Of a DNA stretch of 64,000 bases, positions 4,821 to 62,219 are shown in pieces. The notes below the pieces were generated by a model. The model was not told where the DNA came from, did not search any database, and worked only from the letters and a program-made list of their open reading frames with translations. Position 1 is the stretch's first letter. The number at the start of each line of letters is the position of its first letter. A program made the position numbers and the translations under genes. This DNA is from Candidatus Dojkabacteria bacterium. GTDB taxonomy: Bacteria > Patescibacteriota > Dojkabacteria > SC72 > JAFGCJ01. Location of the stretch: the NCBI GenBank assembly GCA_016929645.1, contig JAFGIK010000026.1, positions 14,288-78,287 of the forward strand, written 5' to 3'.

Positions 4821-5811
4821 ATCAAAAAATAAAGCAACAAAGCCCACACAAAATATAAATACTAAGCATGAAAAACTGACAAAGAAACAGATATTTTCAA
4901 GAATTTTCAGAAATACACGCAAAAATATACTAAGAAATAAATGGCTATCGCTTGCTACAATAATTGTAGTTACAATAACATTCACCATAGCTACACTATT
5001 TCTTGCGCTTACTGTAATTTCAAGCCGTACCATAAGTGTTTTCGAGCAAAAAGCACCAATCATAATCTATTTCGAAAATGACACTGAAGAAAAACTAATC
5101 CAAGACGTAAAAAAACAGATTGAGGACACAGGTTTAGTAAGTGAAGTTGATTACCTCGATAAAGAGCAAGCACTTGAAAGATACAAAAGTTATTATGATG
5201 AATACCCAACTCTTGTCGAATCCTCAACAACAGAAGATGTTCTCCCCACTCTACTGGTAAAACCTAAAAGTATTGAAAACATGCCAGAGCTCAGCGACAT
5301 TTGTAACGACATAAAAAGCAATACTTCAGAGATCAACGATATTTGGTATTTCAAAGATGTAGTTGATACACTTCGCGGAATATCAAAAGTTATCAAAATT
5401 GGTGGGGCCATACTTGTAGTAAGTCTTTCTTTAATGTCTATCGTATTAATATTGATTGCTATTGGATTTAATATTAATTCGCATCGAAAAGAGATCGAAG
5501 TTATGAATTTAATAGGTTCTACAGATTTTTATATCAAGATTCCATTTTTATTAGAGGGTATGTTCTACGGAATTTCTGGTTCACTCATTGCAGTTATCAC
5601 AATTCTAGTATTGTGGTATGGTTCAATATTTCTTATGCGAGACAATAATCTATTCGTCCTCGTTTCCGGATTGTTTACTGATATACAGATGACTTATCTC
5701 AAGGAATTTAATATAATATTCTTGCTTACATTAATTTTAAGCGAGATCCTTGCAGGTTCTCTAATCGGTTTTCTTAGCAGTCAACTTGCTATAAGAAAAT
5801 ACCTAAAATGA
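4813..5811 (+). CDS. ftsX: cell division permease FtsX
   Basis: 332 aa, overlaps ftsE stop by 8 nt, 4 C-terminal TM helices with large periplasmic loop. Confidence 0.75.
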   Translation: MAKSKNKATKPTQNINTKHEKLTKKQIFSRIFRNTRKNILRNKWLSLATIIVVTITFTIATLFLALTVISSRTISVFEQKAPIIIYFENDTEEKLIQDVKKQIEDTGLVSEVDYLDKEQALERYKSYYDEYPTLVESSTTEDVLPTLLVKPKSIENMPELSDICNDIKSNTSEINDIWYFKDVVDTLRGISKVIKIGGAILVVSLSLMSIVLILIAIGFNINSHRKEIEVMNLIGSTDFYIKIPFLLEGMFYGISGSLIAVITILVLWYGSIFLMRDNNLFVLVSGLFTDIQMTYLKEFNIIFLLTLILSEILAGSLIGFLSSQLAIRKYLK

Positions 5812-7205: not shown

Positions 7206-8816
7206 ATGAACAAAAAATATTCCTTTAATAAAATCTCCCTTTTATTCTTCATTTTTACTTGGATACTGACATACAAACTGATTTATCCCAATCAGAAACT
7301 TTATGCATCAAGTAAAACCATTCTTATCAATGAAGTTTTGTATGACCCTCAAGGATCTGACAGCGGGTACGAGTGGATTGAGTTACTAAATATAGGCACA
7401 GATTCCGTTGATCTTGAAGGTTGGAGTATCGAAGTTGCAGGTTCTGAATTCAAGCCGCAGGCAGTACTGCCATCGTTCATCATAGAACCAAATGAAATTA
7501 TAGTTATCGGAGAGTCAAACGTAACTGAAGCCGACATACAAATTAGCTCGCTAAGTTTACAGAATGGTGGATCTACCACAGATGGAGTCAGATTACTCGA
7601 CAACAATTCTGTTGTGATAGACACTCTATTATATGACGATCCCAATACAAATAATCTAGTTGATGATAAGTCTACAATCGCTACCTCTTTTGCGCCTGAT
7701 GCTAAATCTGGAAATTCATTAGTTCGGACATCATCAAACGACACAGATAATTGCAATCATGACTTTTTAGAGACCTCCATACTTACACCTGGATATAAAA
7801 ATCTAATTATTCCAGAGGCAAGAATAGAAACAACTGTCCCTACTTATATCAATCAGCAAATAACAATAGACGGCAATATGTCATCCGACCCAGATGGACA
7901 AATCATAAAATGGATATGGACAATAAATACTGATAACTCAACTCAAAATTTCTATGAACCAACAATAAATGTAAAACTTTACCAGGAGCAGGAAGTTGAG
8001 ATTGTTCTGAAAGTTATTGATAATGATAACTTATCTAGCCAAACATCTACCACAATAGAGATTATAGAAGATCCAGACAACCCAATTATTCAGACGATCA
8101 GTGACATCAAGGATCTTGATTTGAAATCTGACGTTACAATACAAGGACAGATTACAACACCAACGGCTTCAATATACAAAGATGAAATTTACATACAGGA
8201 TAATACTGGAGGTATCCGCATAAAGACGAATGATCTGAAATTTGAATACAAACATAATTACATTGTTAAAGGATTTCTAGATACTAAAAGTGGTGAGGCT
8301 AGAATCAATGCTCAGGAAACAATACCCAAAGGACAGGAAATTCAAATCGAATCAGTCAAAATAGATCTACCTTCGGATATGAGTCAATATATCGGATCCC
8401 TGATAACAATTGAGGGGAAAATCAATTCCAGCCGCGGAGATTACCTTTATATAAAAAATGACGAGGACTCAAACATAAATATCTATTTTTCAAAATTACT
8501 TCATTTCACCAAACCTAAAGATGCAAAAAATAAAAGTTATCAAATCTCAGGAATTATATCCAGCTACGGAAAAGATGAAAACGATAATTTGAAACTCAGG
8601 CTAATGCCAAGATTACAGAGTGATATTGTACCACTGTCTTCACTAGGAAAAACTGGACAAAATTTAACATCAAAGATAGTTTTCTCTGTTATTTCATCGT
8701 TATTTTTAGTATACATAAATACAATCGACTCAAAAAAGAAATTTTCTGAAATATGGACACTCAAACCGTATTTTGATAAACTTCCAACCAAGACAAAGAT
8801 TATTACGAAAACTTAA
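7206..8816 (+). CDS. secreted lamin-tail-domain (LTD) protein with PKD-like and OB-fold regions
   Basis: Signal/TM N-terminus; ILINEVLYDPQGSDSGYEWIELLN is the LTD signature; repeated LTD core later. Confidence 0.6.
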   Translation: MNKKYSFNKISLLFFIFTWILTYKLIYPNQKLYASSKTILINEVLYDPQGSDSGYEWIELLNIGTDSVDLEGWSIEVAGSEFKPQAVLPSFIIEPNEIIVIGESNVTEADIQISSLSLQNGGSTTDGVRLLDNNSVVIDTLLYDDPNTNNLVDDKSTIATSFAPDAKSGNSLVRTSSNDTDNCNHDFLETSILTPGYKNLIIPEARIETTVPTYINQQITIDGNMSSDPDGQIIKWIWTINTDNSTQNFYEPTINVKLYQEQEVEIVLKVIDNDNLSSQTSTTIEIIEDPDNPIIQTISDIKDLDLKSDVTIQGQITTPTASIYKDEIYIQDNTGGIRIKTNDLKFEYKHNYIVKGFLDTKSGEARINAQETIPKGQEIQIESVKIDLPSDMSQYIGSLITIEGKINSSRGDYLYIKNDEDSNINIYFSKLLHFTKPKDAKNKSYQISGIISSYGKDENDNLKLRLMPRLQSDIVPLSSLGKTGQNLTSKIVFSVISSLFLVYINTIDSKKKFSEIWTLKPYFDKLPTKTKIITKT

Positions 8817-35407: not shown

Positions 35408-37300
35408 TTACTGTTTAAAATCAGAATCCTTGGATACCGGATTTGGCTCTGCGATCTTTATTAAATCCGACGCCTTCATGATTATTGATCTATCACGTCT
35501 ACCAGCATTAAACGCTACCTTTTCCTTTTCCCAGAAAGATTTATCAATATATGTCTCAATCTCGAACAATTTTCCAAAAGGTGGAACAGCTCCAACTTTT
35601 ACCCCAAGCTCTGACTCAACAAACTCAGGGTCAGCAAACTTAAGCTTTTCGCCTACAACAGCAGAAGCTTTTTTCATATCAAGCTTCTTATCCGCAGGTA
35701 TACAGACCATAACAAGGCCTCCATCAGGTTTGGTCAAAATCATCGCTTTTGGTGCAATATCCATAGGGGTATTTCGCACTTCAGCCGCCTCTTCCGAAGT
35801 TTTTACAGATCGATGTTCGATTACTTCATATTTAACATCCTCAGAATCAAGCAATCTTTTCAATCTGACAAAAATCACATCACTTTCCTCACCTATATTA
35901 ACAGCCAATCCTAATTCTTTTAGGTGGTCGGGATTTGCAATAGATGGTGCATCCATAACAGATGTTCTACCACGTCTTGTCATTGGAAAGGCAATTGTTT
36001 CTTTTAGAGATTGCTCATTTGCAAGAAGCATGATAATTCTATCAACACCCAGAGCTAATCCTCCATGAGGTGGGGTTCCGAGTTCAAAGGCCTTTACCAT
36101 ATGTCCGATAGCTTTCATCATATCTTCCTCAGAATATCCCATTATCTTGTAAGTCGCTTTCAATACTTCAGGATCATGCGCACGGATACTTCCACCACCT
36201 ACTTCAAGACCATTACAAACAAGGTCATACTGAGTTGTCATTATTTTATCAATATTTTCACCTTTTAAGTGCCATTCTATATGCTCATCAACTGGTTTGC
36301 TAAATGGGTTATGAGTAAATACCCAGCCACTTCTACTTTCTTCAACTTCACTTGCGTCCTTTCGGTCAACTTTCTTGAAAAAAGGAAACTTCACAACCCA
36401 AGCAAATGCAAGTACATTAGCTTTTTTCTCCTCTTCTGTTCTTAGATCAAACTTATCTGCACCATATTTTTTTATCGCTTCATCATAAGGAATTACAGGG
36501 AATGGATCTTCTTTCAATTTAGATCCAACAGCTTTTACAGCCGCTTTGACAGAATTTTCAACAGCACTCATAACCTCAGATTCATTAACAAAACTCATTT
36601 CTAAATCAAGTTGTGTAAATTCGAATCCTCGATCAAACTTCAAATCTTCATCTCGAATACATCTGGCTAACTGAAAATATCTATCTACACCAGCAGTCAT
36701 AAGTAGTTGTTTGTATTGTTGCGGGCTTTGAGGCAAGGCATAAAATTTGCCGGGAGCCATCCTTGATGGGACAAGGAAATTTCGAGCTCCCTCAGATGTT
36801 CCCATAGACAGAAGTGGGGTCTCTACTTCTGTAAAATCCTGTTCAAAAAAACCTTCTCTTAATGATCTAACAAAATTTGACCTCATAACGAGAATATTGT
36901 GCATTCGTTCTCTTCGTAAATCCAGATATCGATATTTCAACCTTAATTCTTCATCGATTTCATACCCATCACTTTTTACAGGAATTGGTAGTTCTTTGCA
37001 TTTATTAAGAACTTTATATTCAGAGACATCGATTTCAATTGTTCCTGTAACTAAATCCTTATTGACACTGTTTTCTGGTCTTTTATTTACTTTTCCAATA
37101 ATTTCAATAACTGATTCATCAGAAAGCTTATCCCCTTTTTTAGTAATAACACATTGGATAATACCTAACTTATCCCGAAGATCAACAAAAGTTACACGTC
37201 CATGATCACGCAGTGTATCAACCCATCCTTGTAGTTTTATAGTTTCTCCAACTTTCTCATTTGCTTGTGCAGTAAGAGTTCTTGATAAATTTGGATTCAT
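35408..37300 (-). CDS. aspS: aspartyl-tRNA synthetase (short form, apparently lacking GAD insertion) fused to C-terminal YbaK/ProX-like aminoacyl-tRNA deacylase domain
   Basis: Class II motif 2 FRDEDLKFDRGFEFTQLDLEMSF, motif 3 GGGSIR...GLALGVDR; C-terminal about 160 aa with GAVPPFG signature of YbaK/ProX. Confidence 0.85.
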   Translation of the reverse strand: MNPNLSRTLTAQANEKVGETIKLQGWVDTLRDHGRVTFVDLRDKLGIIQCVITKKGDKLSDESVIEIIGKVNKRPENSVNKDLVTGTIEIDVSEYKVLNKCKELPIPVKSDGYEIDEELRLKYRYLDLRRERMHNILVMRSNFVRSLREGFFEQDFTEVETPLLSMGTSEGARNFLVPSRMAPGKFYALPQSPQQYKQLLMTAGVDRYFQLARCIRDEDLKFDRGFEFTQLDLEMSFVNESEVMSAVENSVKAAVKAVGSKLKEDPFPVIPYDEAIKKYGADKFDLRTEEEKKANVLAFAWVVKFPFFKKVDRKDASEVEESRSGWVFTHNPFSKPVDEHIEWHLKGENIDKIMTTQYDLVCNGLEVGGGSIRAHDPEVLKATYKIMGYSEEDMMKAIGHMVKAFELGTPPHGGLALGVDRIIMLLANEQSLKETIAFPMTRRGRTSVMDAPSIANPDHLKELGLAVNIGEESDVIFVRLKRLLDSEDVKYEVIEHRSVKTSEEAAEVRNTPMDIAPKAMILTKPDGGLVMVCIPADKKLDMKKASAVVGEKLKFADPEFVESELGVKVGAVPPFGKLFEIETYIDKSFWEKEKVAFNAGRRDRSIIMKASDLIKIAEPNPVSKDSDFKQ

Positions 37301-53055: not shown

Positions 53056-53085
53056 GAGATCTTTCTGATTAAGAGATAGCAAGAA

Positions 53086-53115
53086 GGGAGCGGCCGCAAG
53101 GCCGCTCCCTCTTTT
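53086..53115 (+). terminator. GC-rich rho-independent terminator (GGGAGCGGCC-GCAA-GGCCGCTCCC + TCTTTT), likely bidirectional
   Basis: Perfect 10-bp GC stem followed by U-tract, 30 nt after the 53055 stop; convergent gene 53184-53669 ends opposite. Confidence 0.7.
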
Positions 53116-53183
53116 ATGATCAAATATCCAACGGTCAATACGGCCGGTGGATTACTCCCTTATCAACCACCCCACTCTGGGCC

Positions 53184-53669
53184 CTATACTAAACCCTCAA
53201 CATCTTTAATAAAATCAACAACACCTTTCTCAATCCTTGTGGTCAATTCTTCTTGATTATCAAAATCAGGGTCTTCAACTAAAGTGTATTCAAGAATCGA
53301 ATCGTAGCCATCAAGACTTGGCGGCGTACGGTATTTTCCAAGATCCTTTTTCTGCATCAGATCCAAATATTTTTTTTGTACGTTTTTATTATATCCTGAC
53401 AACCATACCTCAAATCTAGTATCTTCATGAATAAAAACTACTGCAATTTTTAATTTTTTCGACTTAAGAGATTCAGGAATTATTGAGAAATACGTCATAT
53501 CCATATACCCTTGATAAAGTCCTCCTGGTAGCGATAGATTAGCATATTGTTTTTGAAAATATGTCTTCAGCTTCAACATATACTTTAAAATTTCCCGATA
53601 GGCTGTAGGAACATCACCTTTTTGCATTTGGAGTCTGTATTCTTGAATATTGTCATTTATTGATTTCAT
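53184..53669 (-). CDS. hypothetical protein
   Basis: 161 aa, last gene of minus-strand cluster; family not recognised. Confidence 0.45.
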   Translation of the reverse strand: MKSINDNIQEYRLQMQKGDVPTAYREILKYMLKLKTYFQKQYANLSLPGGLYQGYMDMTYFSIIPESLKSKKLKIAVVFIHEDTRFEVWLSGYNKNVQKKYLDLMQKKDLGKYRTPPSLDGYDSILEYTLVEDPDFDNQEELTTRIEKGVVDFIKDVEGLV

Positions 53670-53756
53670 ATCGAATTGGAGGATGATAAATTAATATATT
53701 TAATTATAGCAATTATGAAACCATAGCATAGCAAATCAACACCACTCCACCCAAAA

Positions 53757-54422
53757 TCAATCCCAGCTCCACAAATATTTTTTATATTTTTGATTTAAAT
53801 TTTCATCACCCTTAAAAACACATCCATCTTTTACATAAAATGGTTCTTCATTATAACTTTTTCTTGAGAAAATGCCTCGGAAAATATCCGAAAGAACCGC
53901 AGCGTCATCGTAATAAATGCACAGAGTCCCAGGAAAACCACCTGTCAGCATACTTGGCCTTTTACGGGAATAAACGATTTTAGGCAGGAAAAAGCCGACT
54001 TGAAGCTCCTGACCTATTCCGTTTGAGCTCAGGTTATAATCATACACAACTACCTCTGATGTTAGAATTCTTGAAAAATCAAGATCAACAATTTCTTCTG
54101 GAGATAACCCATGATCAGTTTTGGTCTTTCTTTCATATCTTTTTAATGATTTTCCAGGATTCGTTTTCTCATAGGGTGCCCAAATATCCCAACCCAGAGA
54201 TCGTATATGAGAAGTGACAAAATTTCGTTCCTGCTCATAAAGTGGCGTATAATTCTCATGGTTTGAGAAAGAAACACTGTGGTATATGGAATTTGGAGTA
54301 AAAGAAAAGGCATCCTGGAGATTAGATTTGTCATGAAGAGTTCTAAGAAAAAGATTGAGAAATTTCTTCTGGACTTTACATCGAGTATTTATATATTTTT
54401 CCCAATTTAAGTTGCTTACCAT
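53757..54422 (-). CDS. hypothetical protein
   Basis: 221 aa; no family recognised. Confidence 0.45.
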   Translation of the reverse strand: MVSNLNWEKYINTRCKVQKKFLNLFLRTLHDKSNLQDAFSFTPNSIYHSVSFSNHENYTPLYEQERNFVTSHIRSLGWDIWAPYEKTNPGKSLKRYERKTKTDHGLSPEEIVDLDFSRILTSEVVVYDYNLSSNGIGQELQVGFFLPKIVYSRKRPSMLTGGFPGTLCIYYDDAAVLSDIFRGIFSRKSYNEEPFYVKDGCVFKGDENLNQKYKKYLWSWD

Positions 54423-54507
54423 AATTTCATTTTTTTAAATTGTTTTAGTGAAATTTTCTAAATCATATATATCAAGCCATGAGATGCAGATTTTAGATTT
54501 TCGAAGA

Positions 54508-54759
54508 TTAGTTCGAAAAAGTTGCAAATAATGCTATAACAGCACTGAGCATAGAAGAAATCGCAGAGATAAGAGCTATTATCCAAAGTTGATGTTCTCT
54601 AATTGATCGTTCCGCCTCAATAACTCGTCGCTGAAGCTCAGAGTCATCAGCTCTCTTGTGTCTACCCATACTACTACAAGTTATTGCATCGCCTTGAGTA
54701 TCAACACCTAATCTACGGGCATATTCTTCAAGTTTTTCACCCTCTAGCAATTTTTTCAT
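54508..54759 (-). CDS. small C-terminally TM-anchored protein
   Basis: 83 aa, charged N-terminus, hydrophobic tail. Confidence 0.4.
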   Translation of the reverse strand: MKKLLEGEKLEEYARRLGVDTQGDAITCSSMGRHKRADDSELQRRVIEAERSIREHQLWIIALISAISSMLSAVIALFATFSN

Positions 54760-54778
54760 ATTTTAGGAGATTAATAAG

Positions 54779-55948
54779 TTAACTATTTTTCTCTAGCCAT
54801 GCCTTCACTTCCACTATAGCATATTCTTGCAACTCCTCTATATTTACCAATTCTATCTTTTCATTAAATTTCTCCAGAAGGTCGTAGTGATTCAGATTGC
54901 TTTCATAACATATTGAATGAGGAACATTTTCTTTTTTAACTGCAAATACAATTTTTCTAATCCCTGCCCAATAAGCTCTCGACAAACACATTAAGCATGG
55001 CTCCATTGAGGCATACAACATGCAATCAGTAAGTTGTTCATTAAGCTCGTTTATTGCTATATCAATTGATTTTGATTCTGGGTGAAAGTTGATCTTAGGA
55101 AACGAGGTCGAAGTTGTTTTTGATATTACCTTTCCGTCTTTTACTATAACTGCACCTGCAGGGAATGCTCCTTCATCATAGGATTGATGAGACATTTCTA
55201 TTGCCATTTTTAAATATTCTATGTCTTTATCGTTGTAATCATACTTCTTGATAACTTGAATTGTCCCTGATTTACTTGATCGTAAAATATCCAAAAATAA
55301 TTCAGCTATCTTTTCAGGCGACACAGCATCCTTTGCATATTCTGGAAACCATTTTGTATACTCTTCTGTCGCAGTGTCTGAAGGAGATATTCCGTTCACA
55401 TAGATTTTTTGGTCTTTAAGTTCATCAGCTAAACCGTATGTAAGATCTTCAAGAGCTTTCTTTGAGGCATAATATGGAATCCAACCTTTGCCACCGTTCT
55501 CAAAAGTACCTGAAAGGTTAATAATATGGGAACCTTTATTCATGTATGGTAATAGTCCGTGAATAATTAGGGATGGGGCAGTAAAGCCTACCGAGTATGT
55601 ATCTGTTATTACTTTTTCACCAAAGGTTTCAAAATCTTTTCCTGCAAATACTTCCTTATCATCGTGCCAGATACCCGCAATATTTAAAATAGCATCTATT
55701 CCCGAGTAATTTCCTGCCTTGCAATTATCAATTACTTCATTAAGAAATCCCTTGATATTAAGCTCATCAGTTAGGTCAACTGTATAATATTCAGCTTCGC
55801 CTCCTTTTGATTTAATGTCTCTCACTATTTGGTCTAGTTTGTTGCTGCTTCTCGCAACAAGCAATACCCTATAGCCGTTCTTTGCAAGTTTATTGGCAAC
55901 AGCTTTCCCTATGCCTGTACTTGCTCCAGTTATTATTGCTGTTTTCAT
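54779..55948 (-). CDS. fusion: N-terminal SDR oxidoreductase + C-terminal CDA-fold (cytidine/nucleotide deaminase-like) zinc deaminase
   Basis: TGASTGIGKAV and YxxxK (YYASKKA) for SDR; HPE ... PCLMC zinc-binding pair for deaminase. Confidence 0.65.
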   Translation of the reverse strand: MKTAIITGASTGIGKAVANKLAKNGYRVLLVARSSNKLDQIVRDIKSKGGEAEYYTVDLTDELNIKGFLNEVIDNCKAGNYSGIDAILNIAGIWHDDKEVFAGKDFETFGEKVITDTYSVGFTAPSLIIHGLLPYMNKGSHIINLSGTFENGGKGWIPYYASKKALEDLTYGLADELKDQKIYVNGISPSDTATEEYTKWFPEYAKDAVSPEKIAELFLDILRSSKSGTIQVIKKYDYNDKDIEYLKMAIEMSHQSYDEGAFPAGAVIVKDGKVISKTTSTSFPKINFHPESKSIDIAINELNEQLTDCMLYASMEPCLMCLSRAYWAGIRKIVFAVKKENVPHSICYESNLNHYDLLEKFNEKIELVNIEELQEYAIVEVKAWLEKNS

Positions 55949-56024
55949 TGATTATCTTAAATATCTTAATTAATTAGACTAATTGTTCAGCAAATTATTG
56001 CCTATTAGATTAGTCAAAGGATTA

Positions 56025-56291
56025 TCAGAAATTTTTATATAAACGAACCTGACTCTTTTTTAGGTAACCACTATTTCTAAGTGTATTTATGGTTTCCATA
56101 CTATCTTTAACAAATCCTATATGAGAATCTGTTTTTAAAGGTATATATCCAATAATACCACATCTTTTGCCGTCGATATTAATAATATGATAGATGGAAT
56201 ATTCAGAAGGGTGAACAATTTTATCCCGATCTGAGATCGTTTGGTAATAATTTATATCAAAATCTACAAGCTCAATTTCCATTTCTTGCAA
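56025..56291 (-). CDS. hypothetical small protein
   Basis: 88 aa ORF within co-directional cluster. Confidence 0.35.
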   Translation of the reverse strand: MQEMEIELVDFDINYYQTISDRDKIVHPSEYSIYHIINIDGKRCGIIGYIPLKTDSHIGFVKDSMETINTLRNSGYLKKSQVRLYKNF

Positions 56292-56349
56292 TGATAGAAA
56301 TATAAATTGTATCTAAAGTATTTATGATTAATTGATTGTTGCTGGCACT

Positions 56350-57153
56350 CTACTCCACAACACAAGATCCTGTACTATCTATCACAGTCATATTCTTTCC
56401 ATGATTCCACATAAAATCAAAAACTTTTTTCTGCATTTCACTAAGTTTTGTATTATAAATTTCCACACCCCAGATTCCTCTTTGAGTTACGCCGTACAGA
56501 CAATAAACGTTATTATAAATCATTAGCTCGACCGACATATCAATAATGCTTGAATCAATATACCTGATATCCCATAAACCAAGAAATTCTGTAACGTCAG
56601 TCCAACCTTTAACTGCCTTTTCATTTGTAAGTTCTCTGTACTTAATATTATTCTTAACATATTCTGCCCTAACGCTGTCATAAAAACCGAAATCTAAATA
56701 TGGAGATAGCTCAGCAACTTCAAAAAGTCTTATTTCTTGTTCAGCTTTTTGAGAATTCCACATAATTTGCTTAAGACCAGCAATTCCAGAGTAGTGAACA
56801 ATTTTTGAGTCCTTTTCAACTCTGGAATATACCTTTGATAGAGTATCAATAGTTTTTTCCACCACCAGAGCTCTTTTTTTTAGAACATCTTTCTTTTCTT
56901 CAAGAATGCCAGCAAGAGAGTCTATTCTCCGAACAACATATATCGAAGATTTATTCTTATCTTTCTTATCAACAAGGGAGAGTTTTGCAAGATGACTCAA
57001 GGATTGACTAATTGCATAATGACTTAGCTTACTTTCATTAACCAATTGTGTAATCGTACGAGGTCCATGATTAATCAGATGCAAAAATATTGATGTTTCA
57101 TCTTTTGAGAGACCAAGTTTTTCAAGATACTCACGAATATAGATTTCTTTCAT
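56350..57153 (-). CDS. TrmB-like winged-helix transcriptional regulator (paralog 2)
   Basis: N-terminal YLEKLGLSKDETSIFLHLINHGPRTITQL wHTH; C-terminal domain shared with upstream paralog. Confidence 0.6.
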   Translation of the reverse strand: MKEIYIREYLEKLGLSKDETSIFLHLINHGPRTITQLVNESKLSHYAISQSLSHLAKLSLVDKKDKNKSSIYVVRRIDSLAGILEEKKDVLKKRALVVEKTIDTLSKVYSRVEKDSKIVHYSGIAGLKQIMWNSQKAEQEIRLFEVAELSPYLDFGFYDSVRAEYVKNNIKYRELTNEKAVKGWTDVTEFLGLWDIRYIDSSIIDMSVELMIYNNVYCLYGVTQRGIWGVEIYNTKLSEMQKKVFDFMWNHGKNMTVIDSTGSCVVE

Positions 57154-57965
57154 AACGAAATTTTCGTTTTACCAAAGTAATTAACTAACTTCATCGGCTT
57201 GGAGAACTTCCAAACAAGATCAAAAATATCCTTTTGCATATCAGCCAATGACTGATTATAGATTTCTACACAAAAAAGTTGACCTTCACTGTAGTCATAC
57301 ATACTATAAACATTATTATAAATAGCACATTCAAATATGATCGGTAACTGTTTTTTTTCAACATAGCGCACTTGCCAAAAATTTTTAACAAACTCATCTA
57401 CATCTGTAAACTCTTCAAAGTTACTAAGATTCGTAAGCTGATAATCCATTATTTTATTACGTACAAACTCAATTATTACTTCCCTACAAAAATTATCACT
57501 GGTAAAATCGTTTAGCATCGAAATTTCATATATTCTAAATTCATCTTTGGATTTAGTCTGATTCCATAATGCTTGCATAAAACCGTCATAGCCCTCATAG
57601 TATTTAACCTCAGTATCCTTGATATCATATTGAATTTTATCCGACAAAAACTCCATAACCCTAGGTAAATCATCCTCAAGGCTTTTCATTTCAACTTCGT
57701 CACCCCAGATTTTCATTTTAAGATCATCGTAAGAACATGTCTCAAAAAGAGTACTGTTTTCACCAATTACCTCTCTTACGAGCTGCTTTGAAATCAAATT
57801 ACGAAGGGCGCGATAAAGATTAGTTCTACTCGTATTCATATTCTTCTTAATGGTACTTACACTTGAAAGTCCAACCTTTAAAAGAAAGAAGTAAATATCA
57901 GCCTCTATTGGAGTTAAACCTAAAGATTTTTGGATTGTAGCATTACGATTATTCGTCTGAATCAT
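57150..57965 (-). CDS. TrmB-like winged-helix transcriptional regulator (paralog 1)
   Basis: LGLTPIEADIYFFLLKVGLSSVSTI wHTH; overlaps paralog 2 by 4 nt (ATGA). Confidence 0.6.
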   Translation of the reverse strand: MIQTNNRNATIQKSLGLTPIEADIYFFLLKVGLSSVSTIKKNMNTSRTNLYRALRNLISKQLVREVIGENSTLFETCSYDDLKMKIWGDEVEMKSLEDDLPRVMEFLSDKIQYDIKDTEVKYYEGYDGFMQALWNQTKSKDEFRIYEISMLNDFTSDNFCREVIIEFVRNKIMDYQLTNLSNFEEFTDVDEFVKNFWQVRYVEKKQLPIIFECAIYNNVYSMYDYSEGQLFCVEIYNQSLADMQKDIFDLVWKFSKPMKLVNYFGKTKISL

Positions 57966-58131
57966 AAGCCCTATAGTTATGTAAAGTTATGCATCAATTA
58001 TATCAGAAATAGTTCATCATGTCCACCGATATCATAGGACACGGAAATTTAAAACTTGTGATATTTCCTAGTACACCAAAATCAATGGTCAGAGTGCAAA
58101 AAAAAACAATAAGTATTATCATACTAAATAG

Positions 58132-58899
58132 ATGAATAATATATCCAAATCACAGAAGAAGACAGCACTCGTAACCGGAGCCTCTAGAGGTATAGGTAAA
58201 TCAATTGCAGAGGCACTTATCAATAACGGTTTTTTCGTCTATGCCACATACAATTCCACAGATATTTCAGATATGGAAAAAAAACATAAGGATAGTCTTG
58301 AATTTATCAAAGTTGATTTCAAATCTACACAGGATTTGCAAAAGTTTATTAAAAATATACAGAAACATAACTTTGATTTAGTTATTAACAATGCAGGGAT
58401 GTTCGAACAGGAAGTTTTTGATAAATACGATCACGATATCTGGTATAACACATTCCAAGTTAATCTACATACAGCCTTCGAAATATGCATAAATCTCATC
58501 GAAAACATTAAAGAAGATGGAAGTATTATTAACATCGCAAGCACTGATGGATATCAAGGATCATTTGGAAGTATGGCATACGCGGCAAGCAAAGCAGCAC
58601 TTCTAAATCTCACAAAAAGCCTGGCTAATAACTATGGAGCACTTGGAGTACGAGTAAACTCAATTTCTCCAGGATGGATAAACACATCAATGGCAACAGA
58701 TGCATCATACGAGGCTGCAAGTCTTTCTCCTCTTGGACGGAATGGTAAACCAGAGGAAATATCAGACGTTGTTTTGTGGCTTGCTTCCGACGCTGCGAGA
58801 TTTGTCACAGGATCTGATATAAAGGTCGATGGCGGATACACAAATGTGGACTACATTATGAAGAAAGAAGCAGAAGATATAAAGAATCAGGAACAATAG
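58132..58899 (+). CDS. SDR family oxidoreductase (FabG-like)
   Basis: TGASRGIGKSI, NNAG, YAASKAA motifs; divergent from TrmB pair. Confidence 0.8.
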   Translation: MNNISKSQKKTALVTGASRGIGKSIAEALINNGFFVYATYNSTDISDMEKKHKDSLEFIKVDFKSTQDLQKFIKNIQKHNFDLVINNAGMFEQEVFDKYDHDIWYNTFQVNLHTAFEICINLIENIKEDGSIINIASTDGYQGSFGSMAYAASKAALLNLTKSLANNYGALGVRVNSISPGWINTSMATDASYEAASLSPLGRNGKPEEISDVVLWLASDAARFVTGSDIKVDGGYTNVDYIMKKEAEDIKNQEQ

Positions 58900-59000
58900 C
58901 TTTGCTACAAAGTACTCAAACTAACTAAAGGAACACACATCCTAGCAATTCAGGGTATAATGTATAAAGAAGATATTACTTTTCTATATTCGCTGAAGTT

Positions 59001-59906
59001 ATGATTAAATTCCAGAAGAGCTCAACAGTATTAATCATCGTTATTTGTATCTTTGTATTTGTCGCTAATATTCCTTTTATTTACAAGACTGTTTCAATAA
59101 ATCTCGCTTCAAGTCCCTATAGGGATAGTATTCTTAACCAAAGAAGACATCCCAGAGCAGATCTTCAAACTGATAATAACCATTTGTCTAAAAATACATC
59201 GAAGGCACTTCAACTGGAGCAGTTAGATTTAAAAAATACTGAATATCCAAAAATACAGATAGATAGGGAGTATTGGATTTATATTAATTACTTAGAATCT
59301 GGAGAAAAACTTGCTGTGATCGCAGATGATCTTGATGCTGAATCTCAAACCTTGTCATTTTGGAAATATGATGGTTCTTCCTGGTTAAGATTAAATGAGT
59401 GTTCTAATTTAATCTTATTTGTAACAAAACCTAGCAAAGAAGCTCTTCAATCATATATAAATTACGAGGATTTCAATAATGATGGACTTACAGATGTCTC
59501 TGTTTTCATGAACCCAGGAAGCTCAGCAAATATGACATACAAGATTTGGGTCCAAGAATCAAATTGTTCTAGCTTTATTGCAACTTCAGAATTTGGACAA
59601 CCGCAAGTAAAGGATGGTCTACTAAGATCTATGTACTATTATGGTGCTGGAACTTATTTCACTATCGTTTACTATGATTGGAATGGTCTCACATTTTATC
59701 CTGTTAAAACGGTTACTATAACAACAAATGGCAAGATAGTTGGTAAAGATGACAATCATGATCTTTATGATTGGGAAGTAGTAATAAACAAAGTCGTTGA
59801 TTATGGTTCTTACCCATACGGTTACGTACAAAATGAACCTTGGGTACTTGAAGAAATTAGCAGGGAAGTATTTACATCAAAAGAATCAAGAGTTAATGAG
59901 TATTAA
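59001..59906 (+). CDS. hypothetical membrane-anchored protein
   Basis: N-terminal TM; no family recognised. Confidence 0.4.
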   Translation: MIKFQKSSTVLIIVICIFVFVANIPFIYKTVSINLASSPYRDSILNQRRHPRADLQTDNNHLSKNTSKALQLEQLDLKNTEYPKIQIDREYWIYINYLESGEKLAVIADDLDAESQTLSFWKYDGSSWLRLNECSNLILFVTKPSKEALQSYINYEDFNNDGLTDVSVFMNPGSSANMTYKIWVQESNCSSFIATSEFGQPQVKDGLLRSMYYYGAGTYFTIVYYDWNGLTFYPVKTVTITTNGKIVGKDDNHDLYDWEVVINKVVDYGSYPYGYVQNEPWVLEEISREVFTSKESRVNEY

Positions 59907-59981
59907 CACAAGTATGTAAAATAAATTCTATCAAAACCATCTGTTTCTTTACTTCTTTGTCTCATTCTCTATCAATGTATA

Positions 59982-60899
59982 CTACAACCAGTTAACTTTT
60001 ATTATGTGACTTGTAAAATCTGTTTTAAACCATAAGTCCCCATTTGAACTGTCAACTAGATATCTCGCTATCGTAACGGCATGAGTAGCTTGATCATCAG
60101 CAACAAGTTCGTAAACCCAGATTTGCCAATAATTACAAGATTTGTATCCTTCTCCGATTTCAACACGGAATTCAATACTTACTCGATCATCGTCAGATAC
60201 AGCTTTTATGTATTCCTGAATATATGGTAGATCCCTAATCAAATTTAAGGCTTCATCATAAGATATTACTGGCCCATTCATAGTCCCATTTGTGCATATG
60301 GGTTCTGAATACTCTTTGTATTCAAGTAAATCAATACTGTCGTTGTGTAAATCGTACTTAAAATAACCTTTTATTTCTCCATCACACATTATTGTTTGTA
60401 TTTCAATATCACCGCCATAATCACGAAATGGATATTTGCTAGTACGGCATAATCCGTCTATCCCAACTTCTTCATTTTTAGCATTCTTAGATTTAGTGAC
60501 TTCAGATACATTTGTCTCCGTGTTTTGTAAATCACTGTTTGACCAAGGCATTGTTGAAACGACTTCAAATCTACTTGGCATTCCACGTATCAACCACTCG
60601 TTGTAATTGAGCATAATGTTAAATTGTTTATAGGAGAACAGTAAAATAATTCCCAACAAACTTATTAGAACTTCAAGAGAAGCAATCTTATTTTTCTTCC
60701 CAGAAAAAAAAATTAGGACTAAAGATAGAACACCAGTAACACAAAATGGAATAATAAAATAATATGGCTCATATCCTGTGTGATTCGTCCCGTTAATGAT
60801 CGGCCATCCAACAATAGTCGCCAAAAGTAAAATATTTATGGCAAGAAATCCTATCTGAATATTATTTGAAACCTTTTGTTTTATTGATTTACTTAACAT
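59982..60899 (-). CDS. hypothetical multi-TM N-terminal domain protein
   Basis: Three N-terminal TMs then soluble domain; no family recognised. Confidence 0.4.
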   Translation of the reverse strand: MLSKSIKQKVSNNIQIGFLAINILLLATIVGWPIINGTNHTGYEPYYFIIPFCVTGVLSLVLIFFSGKKNKIASLEVLISLLGIILLFSYKQFNIMLNYNEWLIRGMPSRFEVVSTMPWSNSDLQNTETNVSEVTKSKNAKNEEVGIDGLCRTSKYPFRDYGGDIEIQTIMCDGEIKGYFKYDLHNDSIDLLEYKEYSEPICTNGTMNGPVISYDEALNLIRDLPYIQEYIKAVSDDDRVSIEFRVEIGEGYKSCNYWQIWVYELVADDQATHAVTIARYLVDSSNGDLWFKTDFTSHIIKVNWL

Positions 60900-60950
60900 A
60901 TATGTATTTTATCAAGACATGGTATAGGTTACCAACCTTAAGTTAATAGA

Positions 60951-60981
60951 TACCAGACCCGACTTGAACAGGCACCCCACT
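60951..60981 (-). other. tRNA-Pro-like 3' fragment (anticodon-loop GUGGGGUG fused to T-arm and acceptor 3' strand)
   Basis: Minus strand reads AGTGGGGTG-CCTG-TTCAAGT-CGGGT-CTGGTA; T-loop identical to tRNA-Pro at 61902-61975. Confidence 0.35.
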
Positions 60982-61115
60982 ACTCCCTTTTGGTAGATGT
61001 CTTAATCGGAAGAATCGTACTATGTACAAACATATTCTTCCTTCTATTGATACAACAGTCTCGTAATGTTCTAGAGCTTAAGAATAAGCGGAAGTTTTTA
61101 TTTGAGATTCCTGAG

Positions 61116-61613
61116 TTAATTTGAATATAACCCTTTATCAGTCATCTGAGATTTAAGTCCTTTGCGTGGGAATTTGATTCTTAAACCATTTGACAGTTTA
61201 AGTTTTAGCATCTGGAATCGATCTCTGTGTAAGGCACTTTTATCCCAATCCAAATTTGGATACAATTCAATCAACGTTTCAATCATATCTTTTGTTGTAA
61301 ATTCAACATGCTCCCAATCAGACTCCCTATTTTCTCCTTTTTCTGGTTCAATAACCTCTATAATATCTATTGAAAAATCATTATATTGAATAGGATTATT
61401 TAAAATGAATATCCCTATTCTTCTATCATTAAAAGTAGTTTCCTCACCAAGTAAGGAAATTGACAATAGTTCAGATTTAATTTTTTCATAATCCTCACTA
61501 GAAGAGGTTTGATATCCTAGATGATCTAAATCCAAATTATCTAAATTTATGCCTGCAGCATTAAAAGCTTGAAAAAATTTCTCAAGGAAATCTTTATATG
61601 AATCAATTAACAT
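61116..61613 (-). CDS. hypothetical protein
   Basis: 165 aa ORF between tRNA fragment sites. Confidence 0.4.
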   Translation of the reverse strand: MLIDSYKDFLEKFFQAFNAAGINLDNLDLDHLGYQTSSSEDYEKIKSELLSISLLGEETTFNDRRIGIFILNNPIQYNDFSIDIIEVIEPEKGENRESDWEHVEFTTKDMIETLIELYPNLDWDKSALHRDRFQMLKLKLSNGLRIKFPRKGLKSQMTDKGLYSN

Positions 61614-61843
61614 TATTTATCTTGTGTAAATTTAAAATATATTTGTTCGGAAGTAGTCTGATAACCTATTGAAAATTGGTAATGCCAGACGACTCTCGTT
61701 TCCCTCGCTAGATACATAGATAAAACCTGATCCATGTATCCACACCGATTGCCCTGCAAACTACTGAGTCTATAATCACCACAATGTACATTATATGTAT
61801 ATGGTCGGATGGCAACCCCACGGCTCCCTTTTAGATGTATAAA

Positions 61844-61885
61844 TCGGGGTGACTCGACTTGAACGAGCGACCCCACGCACCCCAT
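61844..61885 (-). pseudogene. 3' half of a second tRNA-Pro(GGG) (anticodon loop to discriminator)
   Basis: AUGGGGU-GCGUG-GGGUC-GCUCG-UUCAAGU-CGAGU-CACCCCG-A; acceptor strand complements the 5' half at 62015-62053. Confidence 0.55.
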
Positions 61886-61887
61886 TC

Positions 61888-61990
61888 TGTCAACTTACAA
61901 ATCGGGATGACCCGACTTGAACGGGCGACCTCACGCACCCCATGCGTGCGCACTAGCCAACTGTGCTACATCCCGATTTGTAAGTTGACA
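61888..61990. repeat. perfect 15-bp inverted repeats (TGTCAACTTACAAAT / ATTTGTAAGTTGACA) immediately flanking the intact tRNA-Pro, extending its acceptor stem to a 22-bp helix
   Basis: Read directly at 61888-61902 and 61976-61990. Confidence 0.7.
61902..61975 (-). tRNA. tRNA-Pro (anticodon GGG), intact
   Basis: Hand fold: CGGGAUG/CAUCCCG acceptor (C1-G72), D GCAC/GUGC, anticodon stem CACGC/GCGUG loop AUGGGGU, variable AGGUC, T-arm GCCCG-UUCAAGU-CGGGU, discriminator A. Confidence 0.85.
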
Positions 61991-62014
61991 TCTTTCCCCA
62001 ACATGGGAAACGTC

Positions 62015-62053
62015 TCCCCATGCGTGTGCTCTAGCCAAATGAGCTACACCCCG
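62015..62053 (-). pseudogene. 5' half of the second tRNA-Pro(GGG) (acceptor to anticodon loop)
   Basis: CGGGGUG-UA-GCUC-AUUUGGCUA-GAGC-A-CACGC-AUGGGGA; combines with 61844-61885 into a perfect cloverleaf. Confidence 0.55.
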
Positions 62054-62219
62054 ATTCAAAAATCAACATTTTCCCTCTACTCGAGGGGCATCTCCCCATA
62101 CTACGCACCGACCAATTTACCTAGAATTCAATACCATTTCATAAAATATTTACGATAATATCATAAAACAACAGTAATCTTACTAAATCAATACTAGTTA
62201 TCAATCAGCAATAAATCAC

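Follow-up and report, generated by a model that had tools for sequence, protein, structure and literature searches.

A documented case in which mobile DNA breaks a tRNA gene and replaces it is tRNA-dependent lysogeny, found in the mycobacteriophage Fionnbharth and its relatives, where integrases with a core of ~10 bp disrupt the host tRNA and the element provides a same-isotype tRNA (Guerrero-Bustamante & Hatfull 2024, PMC10865867). In Islander-type integration at tRNA and tmRNA genes (PMC4383910), the tRNA is instead regenerated from a 3’ part borne by the element, and orphan 5’ halves are never found upstream. A 64-kb stretch of a Candidatus Dojkabacteria (Patescibacteria/CPR) genome, hereafter the window, contains a locus with points in common with both. 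In the reading that we favor, with a probability of roughly 0.55, the segment from 60.95 to 62.13 kb is a layered scar left by repeated site-specific insertions at tRNA-Pro(GGG), and the 7.8-kb gene block beside it lies outside this scar and is ordinary DNA. A preliminary description had proposed that this block is a tRNA-Pro-associated island bounded by two shared 9-mers, and had overlooked both the intact tRNA-Pro and the extra half-copies that surround it (Table 1).

Table 1. Positions of the tRNA-Pro array, the YecM module, the gene block, and the proposed left boundary in the window.
Feature	Position	Strand	Evidence or description
Terminator-like hairpin after the gene for a 1052-aa PKD/Ig surface protein	53085..53110	+	11-bp stem, 9 GC pairs, T-run
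Left 9-mer pair (TACTCCCTT, 6 nt, CACCCCACT), proposed left boundary	53153..53176	.	exact sequence match
Gene block, 7.8 kb	53184..60899	.	ORFs and Pfam hits
SDR-cytidine/dCMP-deaminase fusion gene	54779..55948	-	homologue comparison
Fragment C, decayed tRNA-Pro(GGG) 3’ half, anticodon-loop region to T arm	60950..60990	-	score 30-37, null maximum 21-24
DR2, ~40-nt gapped direct repeat, distal copy (made up of tRNA 3’ end CCGA, trailer, and first part of the old 3’ half)	60971..61009	-	repeat alignment
Conserved non-coding arm element, ~120 nt, ending as a degenerate tRNA-Pro T-loop-to-3’-end	61006..61129	-	nhmmer
YecM/VOC-family gene, cargo of the 0.84-kb module	61116..61613	-	PF06185, E = 3.5e-22
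DR1, proximal copy of the 40-nt repeat, including fragment D (GTGGGGTTGCC), start of the oldest 3’ half	61811..61847	-	
Outer tRNA-Pro(GGG) A, 3’ half, from the anticodon loop (ATGGGGT..)	61844..61885	-	repeat D2, score 68
Perfect 22-nt inverted repeat (61888-61909, 61969-61990), 100% complementary	61888..61990	-	repeat I2, folding
Intact inner tRNA-Pro(GGG) B	61902..61975	-	ARAGORN; Rfam tRNA model 56.4 bits, E = 3.8e-10
Cassette B leader (AGACG, hairpin, left arm)	61976..62015	-	homologous to leader A, p = 0.0002
Outer tRNA-Pro A, 5’ half, ending ..CGCATGGGG in the anticodon loop	62016..62053	-	repeat D1, score 56
Cassette A leader (AGATG, hairpin, ..AAT)	62054..62093	-	
U1, degraded 5’ remainder of an earlier tRNA-Pro layer	62094..62131	-	p = 0.003-0.03, ATGGGG excluded

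The intact tRNA gene (B) is flanked by half-copies in the same orientation: it sits within the anticodon loop of a split tRNA (A), which itself lies inside an older, decayed layer. Joined together, the halves of A form a tRNA with four perfect stems, and wherever these stems differ from those of B, at three pairs (5:68, 12:23, and 51:63), the change is compensated. ATGGGG is duplicated, with one copy at each junction, and the junction ATGGGG/AGAYG has been used twice, in both cases next to one of the two homologous leaders. The remnant U1 has ..GTATGGGG at its end and keeps phase with the 78-nt units. The insert in A is ~136 nt long, 74 nt of which are tRNA, and contains no ORF; the inverted repeat around B lengthens its acceptor stem by about 15 bp.

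Each insertion would have cut the resident tRNA-Pro(GGG) in its anticodon loop after ATGGGG, probably through a recombinase acting on this short core, and the gene would not have been rebuilt. Instead, each insert would have brought a complete replacement tRNA-Pro(GGG) with a leader of ~40 nt and a trailer of ~15 nt. Because the next event would have struck the new intact copy, Russian-doll nesting would result, in the order U1; leader A and 5’ half A; leader B, tRNA B, and trailer; 3’ half A and trailer; and then the oldest 3’ half (D, C), the outer halves presumably no longer being functional. A small element bearing YecM would later have entered the trailer and the old 3’ half, and its integration may have left both the 40-nt direct repeat (DR1 and DR2) and the junction of the arm element with a tRNA 3’ end. 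The right-hand 9-mers would then represent what was once the anticodon-loop and variable region in the oldest 3’ half, now decayed, and the 7.8-kb block would start where host DNA resumes.

Layered tRNA-Pro(GGG) arrays recur in three independent metagenomic lineages, at the loci L008 (at least 3 layers), L010, and L069/L070, all of which also have a complete tRNA-Pro(GGG) on the inside. In layer 2 of L008, CATGGGGTGCG occurs at both junctions, and no clear core duplication was found at the junctions of L008 layer 1 or of L010. The outer layers are decayed to various degrees and therefore fit fossils. The arms flanking the inner tRNA vary in sequence between loci with their pairing kept. At L069, a 6.7-kb CRISPR-Cas block directly follows a tRNA-Pro fragment, and this block is absent from the near-identical L070; no distal repeat was found for this insertion. 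Within this group of bacteria, tRNA-Pro(GGG) is a true hotspot for insertion.

Several observations count against a layered scar. No recombinase gene was found in the window, L008, or L010, apart from an IS200-like Y1 transposase, TnpA (PF01797, E = 1.8e-41), at a distance of 112 nt from the pile in L008, itself full of hairpin insertions. IS200/IS605 and REP/RAYT elements use a Y1 (HUH) transposase and have subterminal hairpins at their ends; no Y1 transposase was found in the window or in L010. All of the inserts are ~100-140 nt, a size that random deletion of large prophages hardly explains, and their complementary arms, paired despite divergence, are left unexplained. In a folding test these arms made the inner tRNA more stable, though without specificity against the outer halves. 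No intact matching element was found in viral contigs.

The tRNA 3’ fragment named in the preliminary description is real, with an alignment score to the tRNA-Pro 3’ half well above the null maximum (fragment C in Table 1), but the right-hand 9-mers lie inside this fragment and its junction rather than merely adjacent to it. Both also fall within the 40-nt direct repeat that closes the 0.84-kb YecM module. The two copies of this repeat, DR1 (61847-61811) and DR2 (61009-60971), align with a score of 42, whereas 1000 shuffles gave null scores that averaged 19 (sd 2.9) and reached 33 at most. They are the best-supported repeat pair of the locus, and they bound the YecM module, not 7.8 kb. Flanking direct repeats of a tRNA 3’ end plus downstream sequence mark a tRNA-integrated remnant, and the YecM module has them. 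Copies of the arm element were found in L061 (two) and L066/L067 (nhmmer E 1e-29 to 4e-33), and in these other genomes it adjoins tRNA pieces or tRNA genes. In the window the element, with its tRNA-like 3’ end, occupies the distal junction of the YecM module, an arrangement conserved in L061 and L066, and we take it to be the module’s attR-type junction. The end of fragment C, ..GGGTCTGGTATC, resembles the ..TCTGGTATCCCCGA fragments of L069/L070. Because host DNA would resume at fragment C, and because DR1 and DR2 bound only the YecM module, we place the 7.8-kb block outside the scar.

The proposed island depends on its two 9-mers, each of which has exactly 2 copies in the window, at the positions described: TACTCCCTT at 53153-53161 and 60981-60989, and CACCCCACT at 53168-53176 and 60973-60981. 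On the left they stand in swapped order with a 6-nt gap; on the right they overlap by one shared base. The argument that this co-occurrence is unlikely by chance is true to a limited extent and was overstated. The co-occurrence is rare if conditioned on the tRNA fragment, with 0.014-0.11 double matches expected for a site of 46-61 nt, but across the AT-rich 64-kb window double 9-mer matches are common, with 136 site pairs sharing two different 9-mers within 30 nt where Markov simulations predict 103-138. If the estimate is made for these two C-rich 9-mers specifically, a post hoc choice, the expectation falls to ~1e-5. Allowing one mismatch, neither 9-mer is over-represented. The attL and attR sites of an integrated element carry one common core in identical order, and the swapped order argues against the suggested reciprocal att junctions. 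With the shared 9-mer core held fixed, similarity of the left site to tRNA- or att-like sequence is not significant (p = 0.03-0.8), and the left site contains no copy of the arm-element sequence found at the real junction. The left site lies 43 nt past a terminator-like hairpin, which the scan calls on the + strand only. On the favored reading the left pair would be coincidental or, at the most, a secondary core of short length; its exact C-rich matches, individually improbable, could mark a short-core site, and to that extent they too count against that reading.

The content of the block is accessory-looking by ORFs and Pfam, as had been stated: DUF7000, 221-aa and 83-aa proteins, the SDR-deaminase fusion, an 88-aa protein, two TrmB-like regulators, an SDR (+), a 301-aa protein (+), and a 305-aa protein. 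None of the hallmarks of an island accompany it. A classical tRNA-integrated island holds a tyrosine or serine integrase gene, most often close to the end nearest the tRNA, and its presence varies among related genomes with breakpoints at the repeats. Pfam detected no recombinase among all ORFs of 53-64 kb, tblastn probes (an integrase, a Y1 transposase, and a GIY-YIG protein) had no match in the 64 kb, and PHROGs and PADLOC found no phage, mobile-element, or defence genes in the block. Atypical composition is typical of islands without strictly defining them, and here the block is ordinary, ranking 43 of 57 segments in tetranucleotide deviation with a GC content of 0.336 compared to 0.346 for the window. 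There are no close relatives: all of its proteins are singletons in 90%-identity clusters, exact-sequence look-ups returned no match, and the nearest syntenic loci have a lipoprotein of ~33% identity and share nothing downstream. Only the fusion gene has close homologues elsewhere (64-86% protein identity), in varied, unrelated neighbourhoods. DNA identity is 78.5% at the fusion gene, restricted to 54755-55948, and the housekeeping genes of the homologue loci are merely 37-44% identical. We regard the block as most likely unremarkable chromosomal DNA with rapid turnover that happens to adjoin an integration hotspot.

It is doubtful, though well short of implausible, that the block (about 53.15-60.95 kb) is instead an integrated element in its own right, or the final unit in a tandem array at tRNA-Pro, and has since lost its integrase. 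Its core, repeated at both ends, would be AGTGGGGTG, which departs from the anticodon-loop core by one substitution, and CACCCCACT is one base off the sequence with which 3’ half A meets its anticodon-loop junction (CACCCCATT, 61878-61886). Integration at a short core is documented (PMC10865867), the chance expectation for this specific pair is low, and the identity pattern of the fusion gene is transfer-like. Strain-specific cargo also stands behind the tRNA-Pro(GGG) arrays of relatives (L069 vs L070), and in L061 a homologous fusion-gene cluster lies between tRNA-Pro-derived pieces. The real cargo at L069, right after a tRNA-Pro fragment, counts against dismissing cargo here, and because that insertion also lacks a distal repeat, a poor left repeat does not exclude it. 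Against such an element stand the missing recombinase, mobile-element genes, and compositional signal, the non-significant likeness of the left site to tRNA-Pro once the core is given, and the frequency of double 9-mer coincidences. A single core, moreover, cannot explain the swapped order of the second 9-mer, and recurrence elsewhere is limited to one gene rather than the whole block. The right boundary proposed for the island does fall within recombination debris derived from tRNA-Pro, but the island itself is left without a recombinase, odd composition, or a supported left end.

A functional RNA architecture, in which the inner tRNA and its arms form an intron-like insert and two tRNAs are made from one transcript, is improbable. 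RNase P and RNase Z would free the inner tRNA, the arm helix would hold the outer halves together, and trimming and ligation would follow. All stems are kept in outer tRNA A and in L008 layer 1, the arms show covariation between loci (one pair, in L010, being G.U), and the layers are all co-oriented behind one promoter-like site. The predicted fold places the tRNA atop a 22-bp stem inside paired outer halves (dG -113.9, z = -6.0). The lineage, however, is bacterial (C1-G72 tRNA-Pro), and inspection of the junctions found no bulge-helix-bulge geometry. Junction positions and spacers vary between loci, both halves in the window carry ATGGGG, and decay is clear in the L010 outer 3’ half and in the deeper layers of L008 and the window. 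Rfam identified no group I intron or other RNA. The catalytic core of a group I intron (P3-P9) typically takes 200 nt or more and can be recognised with the Rfam model Intron_gpI; the insert has ~136 nt, and cmscan at E <= 1 over 50-64 kb gave tRNA only. Archaeal intron-containing, split, and permuted tRNAs (PMC4090602) share with this locus an interruption in or near the anticodon loop and a long helix formed by the flanks. They rely on bulge-helix-bulge splicing, with the motif at each exon-intron junction and a splicing endonuclease, whereas the window is bacterial, its insert is itself a complete tRNA, and its outer copies decay. An intron or split tRNA of this type was rejected: on inspection, the regions left unpaired from the anticodon stem to the arm helix measure 4x7 nt in L008 and 31x9 nt in the window, where the motif has 3-nt bulges separated by 4 bp.

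Least probable of all is an origin of the pile by local duplication, slippage, template switching, or metagenome assembly artefact without site-specific insertion, for although the 78-nt and 58-nt units are tandem-like (D1, D2) and a quasi-repeat inside tRNA-Pro (TGGGGTGCG, TGGGGTCGC) could favour slippage, the identical junction was employed twice, comparable nesting with different sequences occurs in three other independent assemblies, and A and B appear to have diverged long ago under selection and to have been joined recently, because their leaders are just ~55% identical and yet both tRNAs have perfect stems with compensated changes.

Among other systems, an integron attC cassette is bounded by RYYYAAC ... 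GTTRRRY around an imperfect hairpin, with an integron integrase close by. On inspection, the window arm ends TGTCAAC and GTTGACA fit this partly; the L008 and L010 arms do not, there is no integrase, and this candidate was rejected. Free-standing GIY-YIG homing endonucleases occur in tRNA gene clusters (T4 SegB, PMC2330249), and small GIY-YIG genes are likewise present in L061 and L071, among tRNA-Pro pieces or close to the fusion gene. Homing into an intact target could in principle explain repeated hits on the only intact copy, although the window has no such gene and the ~87-aa proteins have no obvious DNA-binding domain. Islander-type islands (PMC4383910) and the tRNA fragments that they leave (PMC9897764) resemble the locus in their direct-orientation 3’ fragments downstream of an intact tRNA, in the pattern of the YecM module (DR1, DR2, and the junction of arm and tRNA 3’ end), and in the strain-specific cargo of L069. 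They differ in that the window also has 5’ halves stacked upstream and has no integrase left. The 7.8-kb block departs from them as well, for such islands have an intact tRNA at one end and, at the other, a displaced tRNA 3’ fragment in direct repeat: its proximal end is the decayed fragment C, 0.9 kb off the intact tRNA, and its distal site, which is not detectably tRNA-derived, has no demonstrable displaced fragment.

Of known systems, tRNA-dependent lysogeny is the closest precedent for the nested tRNA-Pro. There, an entire prophage that encodes a tyrosine integrase is inserted, at a core located in the 3’ half of tRNA-Lys. Here, inserts measure just ~100-140 nt (leader, tRNA, trailer, and complementary arms) and come without an integrase, the anticodon loop of tRNA-Pro provides the core, and events are stacked in as many as three or four nested layers. 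Nothing in the locus corresponds to the temperate phage or element, equipped with a tyrosine integrase and arm-type sites, of that system: no integrase was found in the window, L008, or L010, and no viral contig matched. What the two share is a tRNA split at a short core and not rebuilt, the halves of A flanking the insert in our case, with the core at both junctions (here ATGGGG) and incoming DNA that bears a complete tRNA of the same isotype, which in lysogeny becomes indispensable.

The tRNA-Pro(GGG) locus that adjoins the 7.8-kb block proposed as a genomic island is a stack of nested gene copies, in which an intact inner tRNA (B) lies between the halves of an outer, split tRNA (A), with an older decayed 5' remnant (U1) on one side and the oldest 3'-half pieces (D and C) on the other. 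Joined together, the halves of A form a tRNA-Pro with four perfect stems that differs from B at nine positions, and all three of the stem differences are compensated (5:68, 12:23 and 51:63). The 40-nt leaders of A and B are homologous (p = 0.0002) yet only ~55% identical, and both start AGAYG right after ATGGGG. A third unit, 78 nt long and farther upstream, keeps the phase and bears a weak resemblance to tRNA (p = 0.003-0.03). The tRNA 3' fragment named in the preliminary description is real: fragment C aligns colinearly along the 3' half of tRNA-Pro, anticodon loop to T arm, with a score of 30-37 against a null maximum of 21-24.

Features of the nested tRNA-Pro(GGG) stack and of the 7.8-kb block in window coordinates, with the arms that flank the inner tRNA at the three nested loci
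Feature	Position	Strand	Remark
Decayed 5' remnant U1	62131-62094	-	ends ..GTATGGGG
Leader A	62093-62054	-	
5' half A	62053-62016	-	ends ..CGCATGGGG
Leader B	62015-61976	-	
Intact tRNA B	61975-61902	-	Rfam 56.4 bits
Trailer of tRNA B	between tRNA B and 3' half A	-	16 nt
3' half A	61885-61844	-	begins ATGGGGTGCG..
Trailer of A	between 3' half A and fragment D	-	
Fragment D	61832-61811	-	
YecM gene	between fragments D and C	-	
Fragment C	60990-60950	-	
DUF7000	53184-53669	-	7.8-kb block
Genes of 221 and 83 aa			7.8-kb block; no assigned family
SDR-cytidine-deaminase fusion	54779-55948	-	7.8-kb block
88-aa ORF			7.8-kb block
Two TrmB-like regulators	56350-57153, 57150-57965	-	7.8-kb block
SDR	58132-58899	+	7.8-kb block
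Genes of 301 and 305 aa			7.8-kb block; no assigned family
Window arms			left TGTCAACTTACAAAT; right ATTTGTAAGTTGACA
L008 arms			left CCCCGAACCAAATTTT; right AAAATTTGGTTCGGGG
L010 arms			left TCTCGCACTGAA; right TTCAGTGCGGGA; one G.U pair

A perfect 22-nt inverted repeat (61888-61909/61969-61990) lengthens the acceptor stem of B, and the predicted fold is an inner cloverleaf on a 22-bp stem (dG -113.9 kcal/mol, z = -6.0). In folding calculations the arms lift the probability of the inner acceptor stem from ~0.3 to 0.996. Insulation of the inner tRNA against mispairing with the near-identical outer halves was considered and is not supported as a specific role of the arms, because the loss is equal when the outer halves are also shuffled. 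A 90-aa ORF (61613-61885, minus strand) begins at the anticodon-loop ATG of 3' half A; it was considered as an SSV-type split integrase and rejected, and is probably spurious since it has no Pfam match and apparently no slot in the NCBI locus-tag series (inferred from the numbering). Promoter-like sites on the minus strand occur upstream of the entire stack (62177-62204; TTGATA, 16 nt, TAAGAT) and between fragment C and the 305-aa gene (60906-60935; TTGGTA, 18 nt, TAAAAT, with TG), such sites being found in the number expected by chance.

Nesting of this kind recurs on other contigs. In metagenome contigs, 11 loci match a degenerate pattern of the tRNA-Pro 3' half. Nine of them are apparently plain single genes within the ±160 nt inspected, or as far as the contig reaches where its end comes sooner (two loci are truncated by a contig end). 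The other two, L008 and L010, have the nested arrangement, with a 5' half, CGGGCYGTAGCGAAGYTGGCTATCGCGCATGCATGG, that breaks off in the anticodon loop, then one arm, a whole tRNA-Pro(GGG) and finally the arm complementary to the first. The arm sequences differ among the window, L008 and L010, and their pairing is kept. L008 has at least three layers, with the same arm type twice and a CATGGGGTGCG duplication at one junction, and its outer layers are broken where various hairpins have entered the D loop, anticodon stem and variable region. An IS200-like Y1 transposase gene (PF01797, E = 1.8e-41) lies 112 nt away, and together with the hairpins it may reflect REP/RAYT-like activity; layers and transposase gene occupy L008 3120-3680 and 3795-4193. 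Decayed outer copies are seen in the deeper layers of L008, in L010, where the outer 3' half is badly decayed, and in the window as U1 and D. At L010 the nested tRNA-Pro is followed by a free-standing YbaK-like gene; in the window, the aspartyl-tRNA synthetase (35408-37300, minus strand) has a C-terminal YbaK/Cys-tRNA(Pro) deacylase-like domain (residues ~482-619), an unusual fusion.

A variant arrangement is seen in the contig pair L069/L070. There, three tandem ~93-nt units, each opening with tRNA-Pro nt 1-13, precede an intact gene that is followed by several ..CCCGA fragments. At L061, a 21-nt palindromic motif, GGCSGACCAGCCTWTGGCTGG, occurs twice at a tRNA-Pro remnant, once within its T loop and once where its 5' part is missing. 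Viral contigs, searched for an intact tRNA-replacing element, yielded none: the 3'-half pattern had no match, and a 15-mer gave 44 matches there, 43 of them chance-like and not tRNA-like and one a tRNA-Pro on a 221-kb viral contig.

Larger cargo also occurs at these sites. In the window, a ~40-nt direct repeat bounds a 0.84-kb piece carrying the YecM gene, which is the best-supported inserted module. On the minus strand, DR1 (61847-61811) reads CCGATTTATACATCT and, after a three-position gap, AAAAGGGAGCCGTGGGGTTGCC, and DR2 (61009-60971) reads CCGATTAAGACATCTACCAAAAGGGAGTAGTGGGG-TGCC; this gapped repeat has a score of 42, whereas 1000 shuffles averaged 19 (sd 2.9) and never exceeded 33. Directly before DR2 lies a ~120-nt non-coding sequence (61129-61006, minus strand), here called the arm element, which ends as a degenerate tRNA-Pro from the T loop to the 3' end. 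Copies with ~75% identity (nhmmer E-values 1e-29 to 4e-33) bring its occurrence to three different genomes, always adjoining tRNA genes or fragments: L061 has two (5405-5527 and 8669-8791), one of them upstream of a GIY-YIG gene and then a partial tRNA-Pro, and in L066/L067 the element (L066 13256-13378) is directly upstream of tRNA-Leu and tRNA-Gln. In both L061 and L066 it is downstream of the SDR-deaminase gene cluster. It has no match in Rfam and is either the arm of an element (an att junction) or a small RNA outside the Rfam families. The DR1 end can be read as attL, composed of the tRNA A 3' end, its trailer and the start of the oldest 3' half, and the DR2 end as attR, in which the element arm is followed by a tRNA-like 3' end and that trailer again. 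Host DNA would then resume at the T arm of fragment C, which places the 7.8-kb block outside the recognisable scar.

A second case of cargo is provided by L069 and L070, which are ~98% identical and differ by a 6.7-kb block (L069 11795-18528) that is replaced by 42 nt in L070 (11812-11853). The block encodes Cas4, Cas1, Cas2, a CRISPR array and a 1115-aa protein without a Pfam match, which is possibly a Cas effector. It begins directly after a tRNA-Pro 3' fragment ending ..TCTGGTATCCCCGATTTTA, and no repeat was found at its far end. Window fragment C has this variant 3' end too, in truncated form (..GGGTCTGGTATC). Small GIY-YIG genes (~80-87 aa) adjoin the tRNA-Pro remnants in L061 (5550-5813), and three lie in tandem in L071 (6765-7605) near the SDR-deaminase fusion gene and a tRNA-Arg. 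A homing-endonuclease role for such genes in tRNA-gene turnover is conceivable.

The proposal of a 7.8-kb island rested on two 9-mers shared by its ends, and their positions are as claimed: TACTCCCTT at 53153-53161 and 60981-60989, and CACCCCACT at 53168-53176 and 60973-60981. Each has two copies and no more in the 64-kb window, in swapped order with a 6-nt gap on the left and with a 1-base overlap on the right. The generic argument that sharing two 9-mers is unlikely by chance is wrong in this AT-rich window, where 136 site pairs have two distinct 9-mers in common (on different diagonals and no more than 30 nt apart) against Markov expectations of 103, 115 and 138 at orders 1, 3 and 5, but when anchored on the 46-61-nt tRNA-fragment site only 0.014-0.11 other sites are expected with any two non-overlapping 9-mers. 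The coincidence is therefore moderately unusual and not decisive. For this C-rich pair alone the expectation is ~1e-5, a figure that reflects a post hoc choice. A wider motif family was rejected, as neither 9-mer is over-represented in the window with one mismatch allowed. On the minus strand, AAGGGAGTA of the preliminary description matches the decayed anticodon loop (ATGGGGTGC) of fragment C, and AGTGGGGTG matches its anticodon-stem and variable region; AGTGGGGTG also differs by one substitution from the anticodon-loop junction AATGGGGTG at 61886-61878. Debris of tRNA-Pro and the DR2 repeat account for the right half of the observation. The exact 9-mer pair on the left is unexplained.

The left site itself scores at the null mean against tRNA-Pro under strict scoring. 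A colinear 44-nt alignment (p = 0.0003-0.015 versus random window segments) had made it a candidate decayed tRNA-Pro 3' half, which was rejected because p rises to 0.03-0.8 once the shared core is held fixed. Past the 9-mers the left and right sites show no similarity, and there is no arm-element copy near 53 kb. A 34-nt imperfect inverted repeat (~76% identity; 53061-53093 and 60983-61016, plus-strand coordinates) joins the region just past the surface-protein stop codon to the right boundary; its score of 27 does not exceed what shuffles reach (maximum 29), and chance probably accounts for it.

ORFs and Pfam matches bear out the gene content reported for the block. The terminator at its left end, described as bidirectional, is a strong hairpin with a T-run (53085-53110), 43 nt short of the left site, but it is called as a terminator on the plus strand only. 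Composition, suggested as a check, is ordinary, with a GC content of 0.336 versus 0.346 for the window and a tetranucleotide deviation ranking 43rd of 57 equal-sized segments. No recombinase was detected by Pfam in 50-64 kb, tblastn probes for a Y1 transposase, a tyrosine integrase and a GIY-YIG protein had no match in the whole window, and the search for phage and defence genes in the block returned nothing beyond SDR and deaminase hits of a generic kind and a single marginal Csa3-like match. A discrete island here is possible though rather unlikely: the L069/L070 polymorphism raises its plausibility, which is lowered because the block failed every intrinsic test for an island. The block has nothing remarkable as a genomic island and is not proven to be one; it is the adjoining tRNA-Pro locus that is unusual.

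One gene of the block, rather than the whole, shows a transfer-like or unusually constrained pattern. Homologues of the SDR-deaminase fusion are 64-86% identical and occur in CPR contigs with a GC content of 0.28-0.42, in very varied neighbourhoods (nine look-ups) that include restriction-modification, SMODS/SLATT, cell-division, mur and mutS genes. In tblastn and blastn comparisons of the window with L057-L065 it is the sole common gene, with a DNA identity of 78.5% limited to 54755-55948 (minus strand), and the housekeeping genes in these loci are only 37-44% identical to those of the window, which suggests either single-gene horizontal spread or strong constraint. The 223-aa and 301-aa genes of L062 were considered as homologues of the 221-aa and 301-aa genes of the window and rejected, no homology being found. 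The fusion gene is repeatedly found beside restriction-modification, SMODS/SLATT or CRISPR-Cas genes. Three lineages have it close to tRNA-Pro(GGG) sequences: the window, L061, in which pieces derived from tRNA-Pro flank it on both sides, and L069/L070, where an intact tRNA-Pro is 325 nt downstream.

Bacterial-type AspRS, GltX, RecJ and SppA, a C1-G72/A73 tRNA-Pro and a lipobox protein all indicate that the host is a bacterium. The window proteins correspond to locus tags JW887_01690-01755, and all ten that were checked form singleton clusters at 90% identity. The lipoprotein upstream of tRNA-Pro has ~33% identical homologues in four loci (L004, L006, L009 and L012), upstream of plain tRNA-Pro genes, and no gene downstream of tRNA-Pro is common to these and the window. 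For closer relatives, a genome-contig scan gave one 38% match without a tRNA, a first metagenome scan and exact-sequence contig look-ups gave no match, and a lipoprotein search returned only the self-match. The best MiaB homologues are 52-53% identical, on 1-2 kb contigs.

A unit carrying a whole tRNA-Pro could give rise to such loci by inserting into a resident tRNA-Pro gene at a short core. Repeat insertions would nest, because the innermost copy alone keeps an intact target, and outer copies would then decay. We tentatively propose, with a probability of roughly 30%, a minimal selfish cassette of CPR genomes, ~100-140 nt in length, made up solely of a complete tRNA-Pro(GGG) with its leader and trailer, the ends pairing as a long helix. 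It would home into the resident tRNA-Pro gene at the anticodon loop (the D arm in some lineages) and be tolerated as it replaces the function that it destroys; repeated homing into the sole intact copy would yield Russian-doll tRNA genes, with larger cargo (the YecM module, the L069 CRISPR-Cas block and possibly the 7.8-kb block) at the same hotspot. If the small tRNA-only inserts are themselves mobile, they would form a new class of mobile element, extremely compact and self-compensating, the replacement tRNA would become an addictive gene, and genomes with a minimal tRNA set would have a source of tRNA gene turnover. In practice, nested tRNA loci will mislead tRNA annotation and island-finding software. 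We rate the nested scar as more interesting than the 7.8-kb block and not as a new category.

The literature searched held no description of nested bacterial tRNA genes with orphan 5' and 3' halves, and such a minimal cassette may be previously undescribed. In classical tRNA-targeted integration, the gene is rebuilt by an element-borne 3' part and only 3' fragments remain (PMC4383910, PMC9897764). That process cannot produce orphan 5' halves, whereas the stack in the window has orphan 5' and 3' halves. Closer is tRNA-dependent lysogeny, in which the core is ~10 bp, the gene is not reconstituted and the phage brings a tRNA of identical isotype (PMC10865867). Three features are outside the model's account, namely inserts of only ~100-140 nt, no recombinase nearby and covarying arms; the order of the pieces in the window fits a whole-tRNA unit inserted into a resident gene at a short core.
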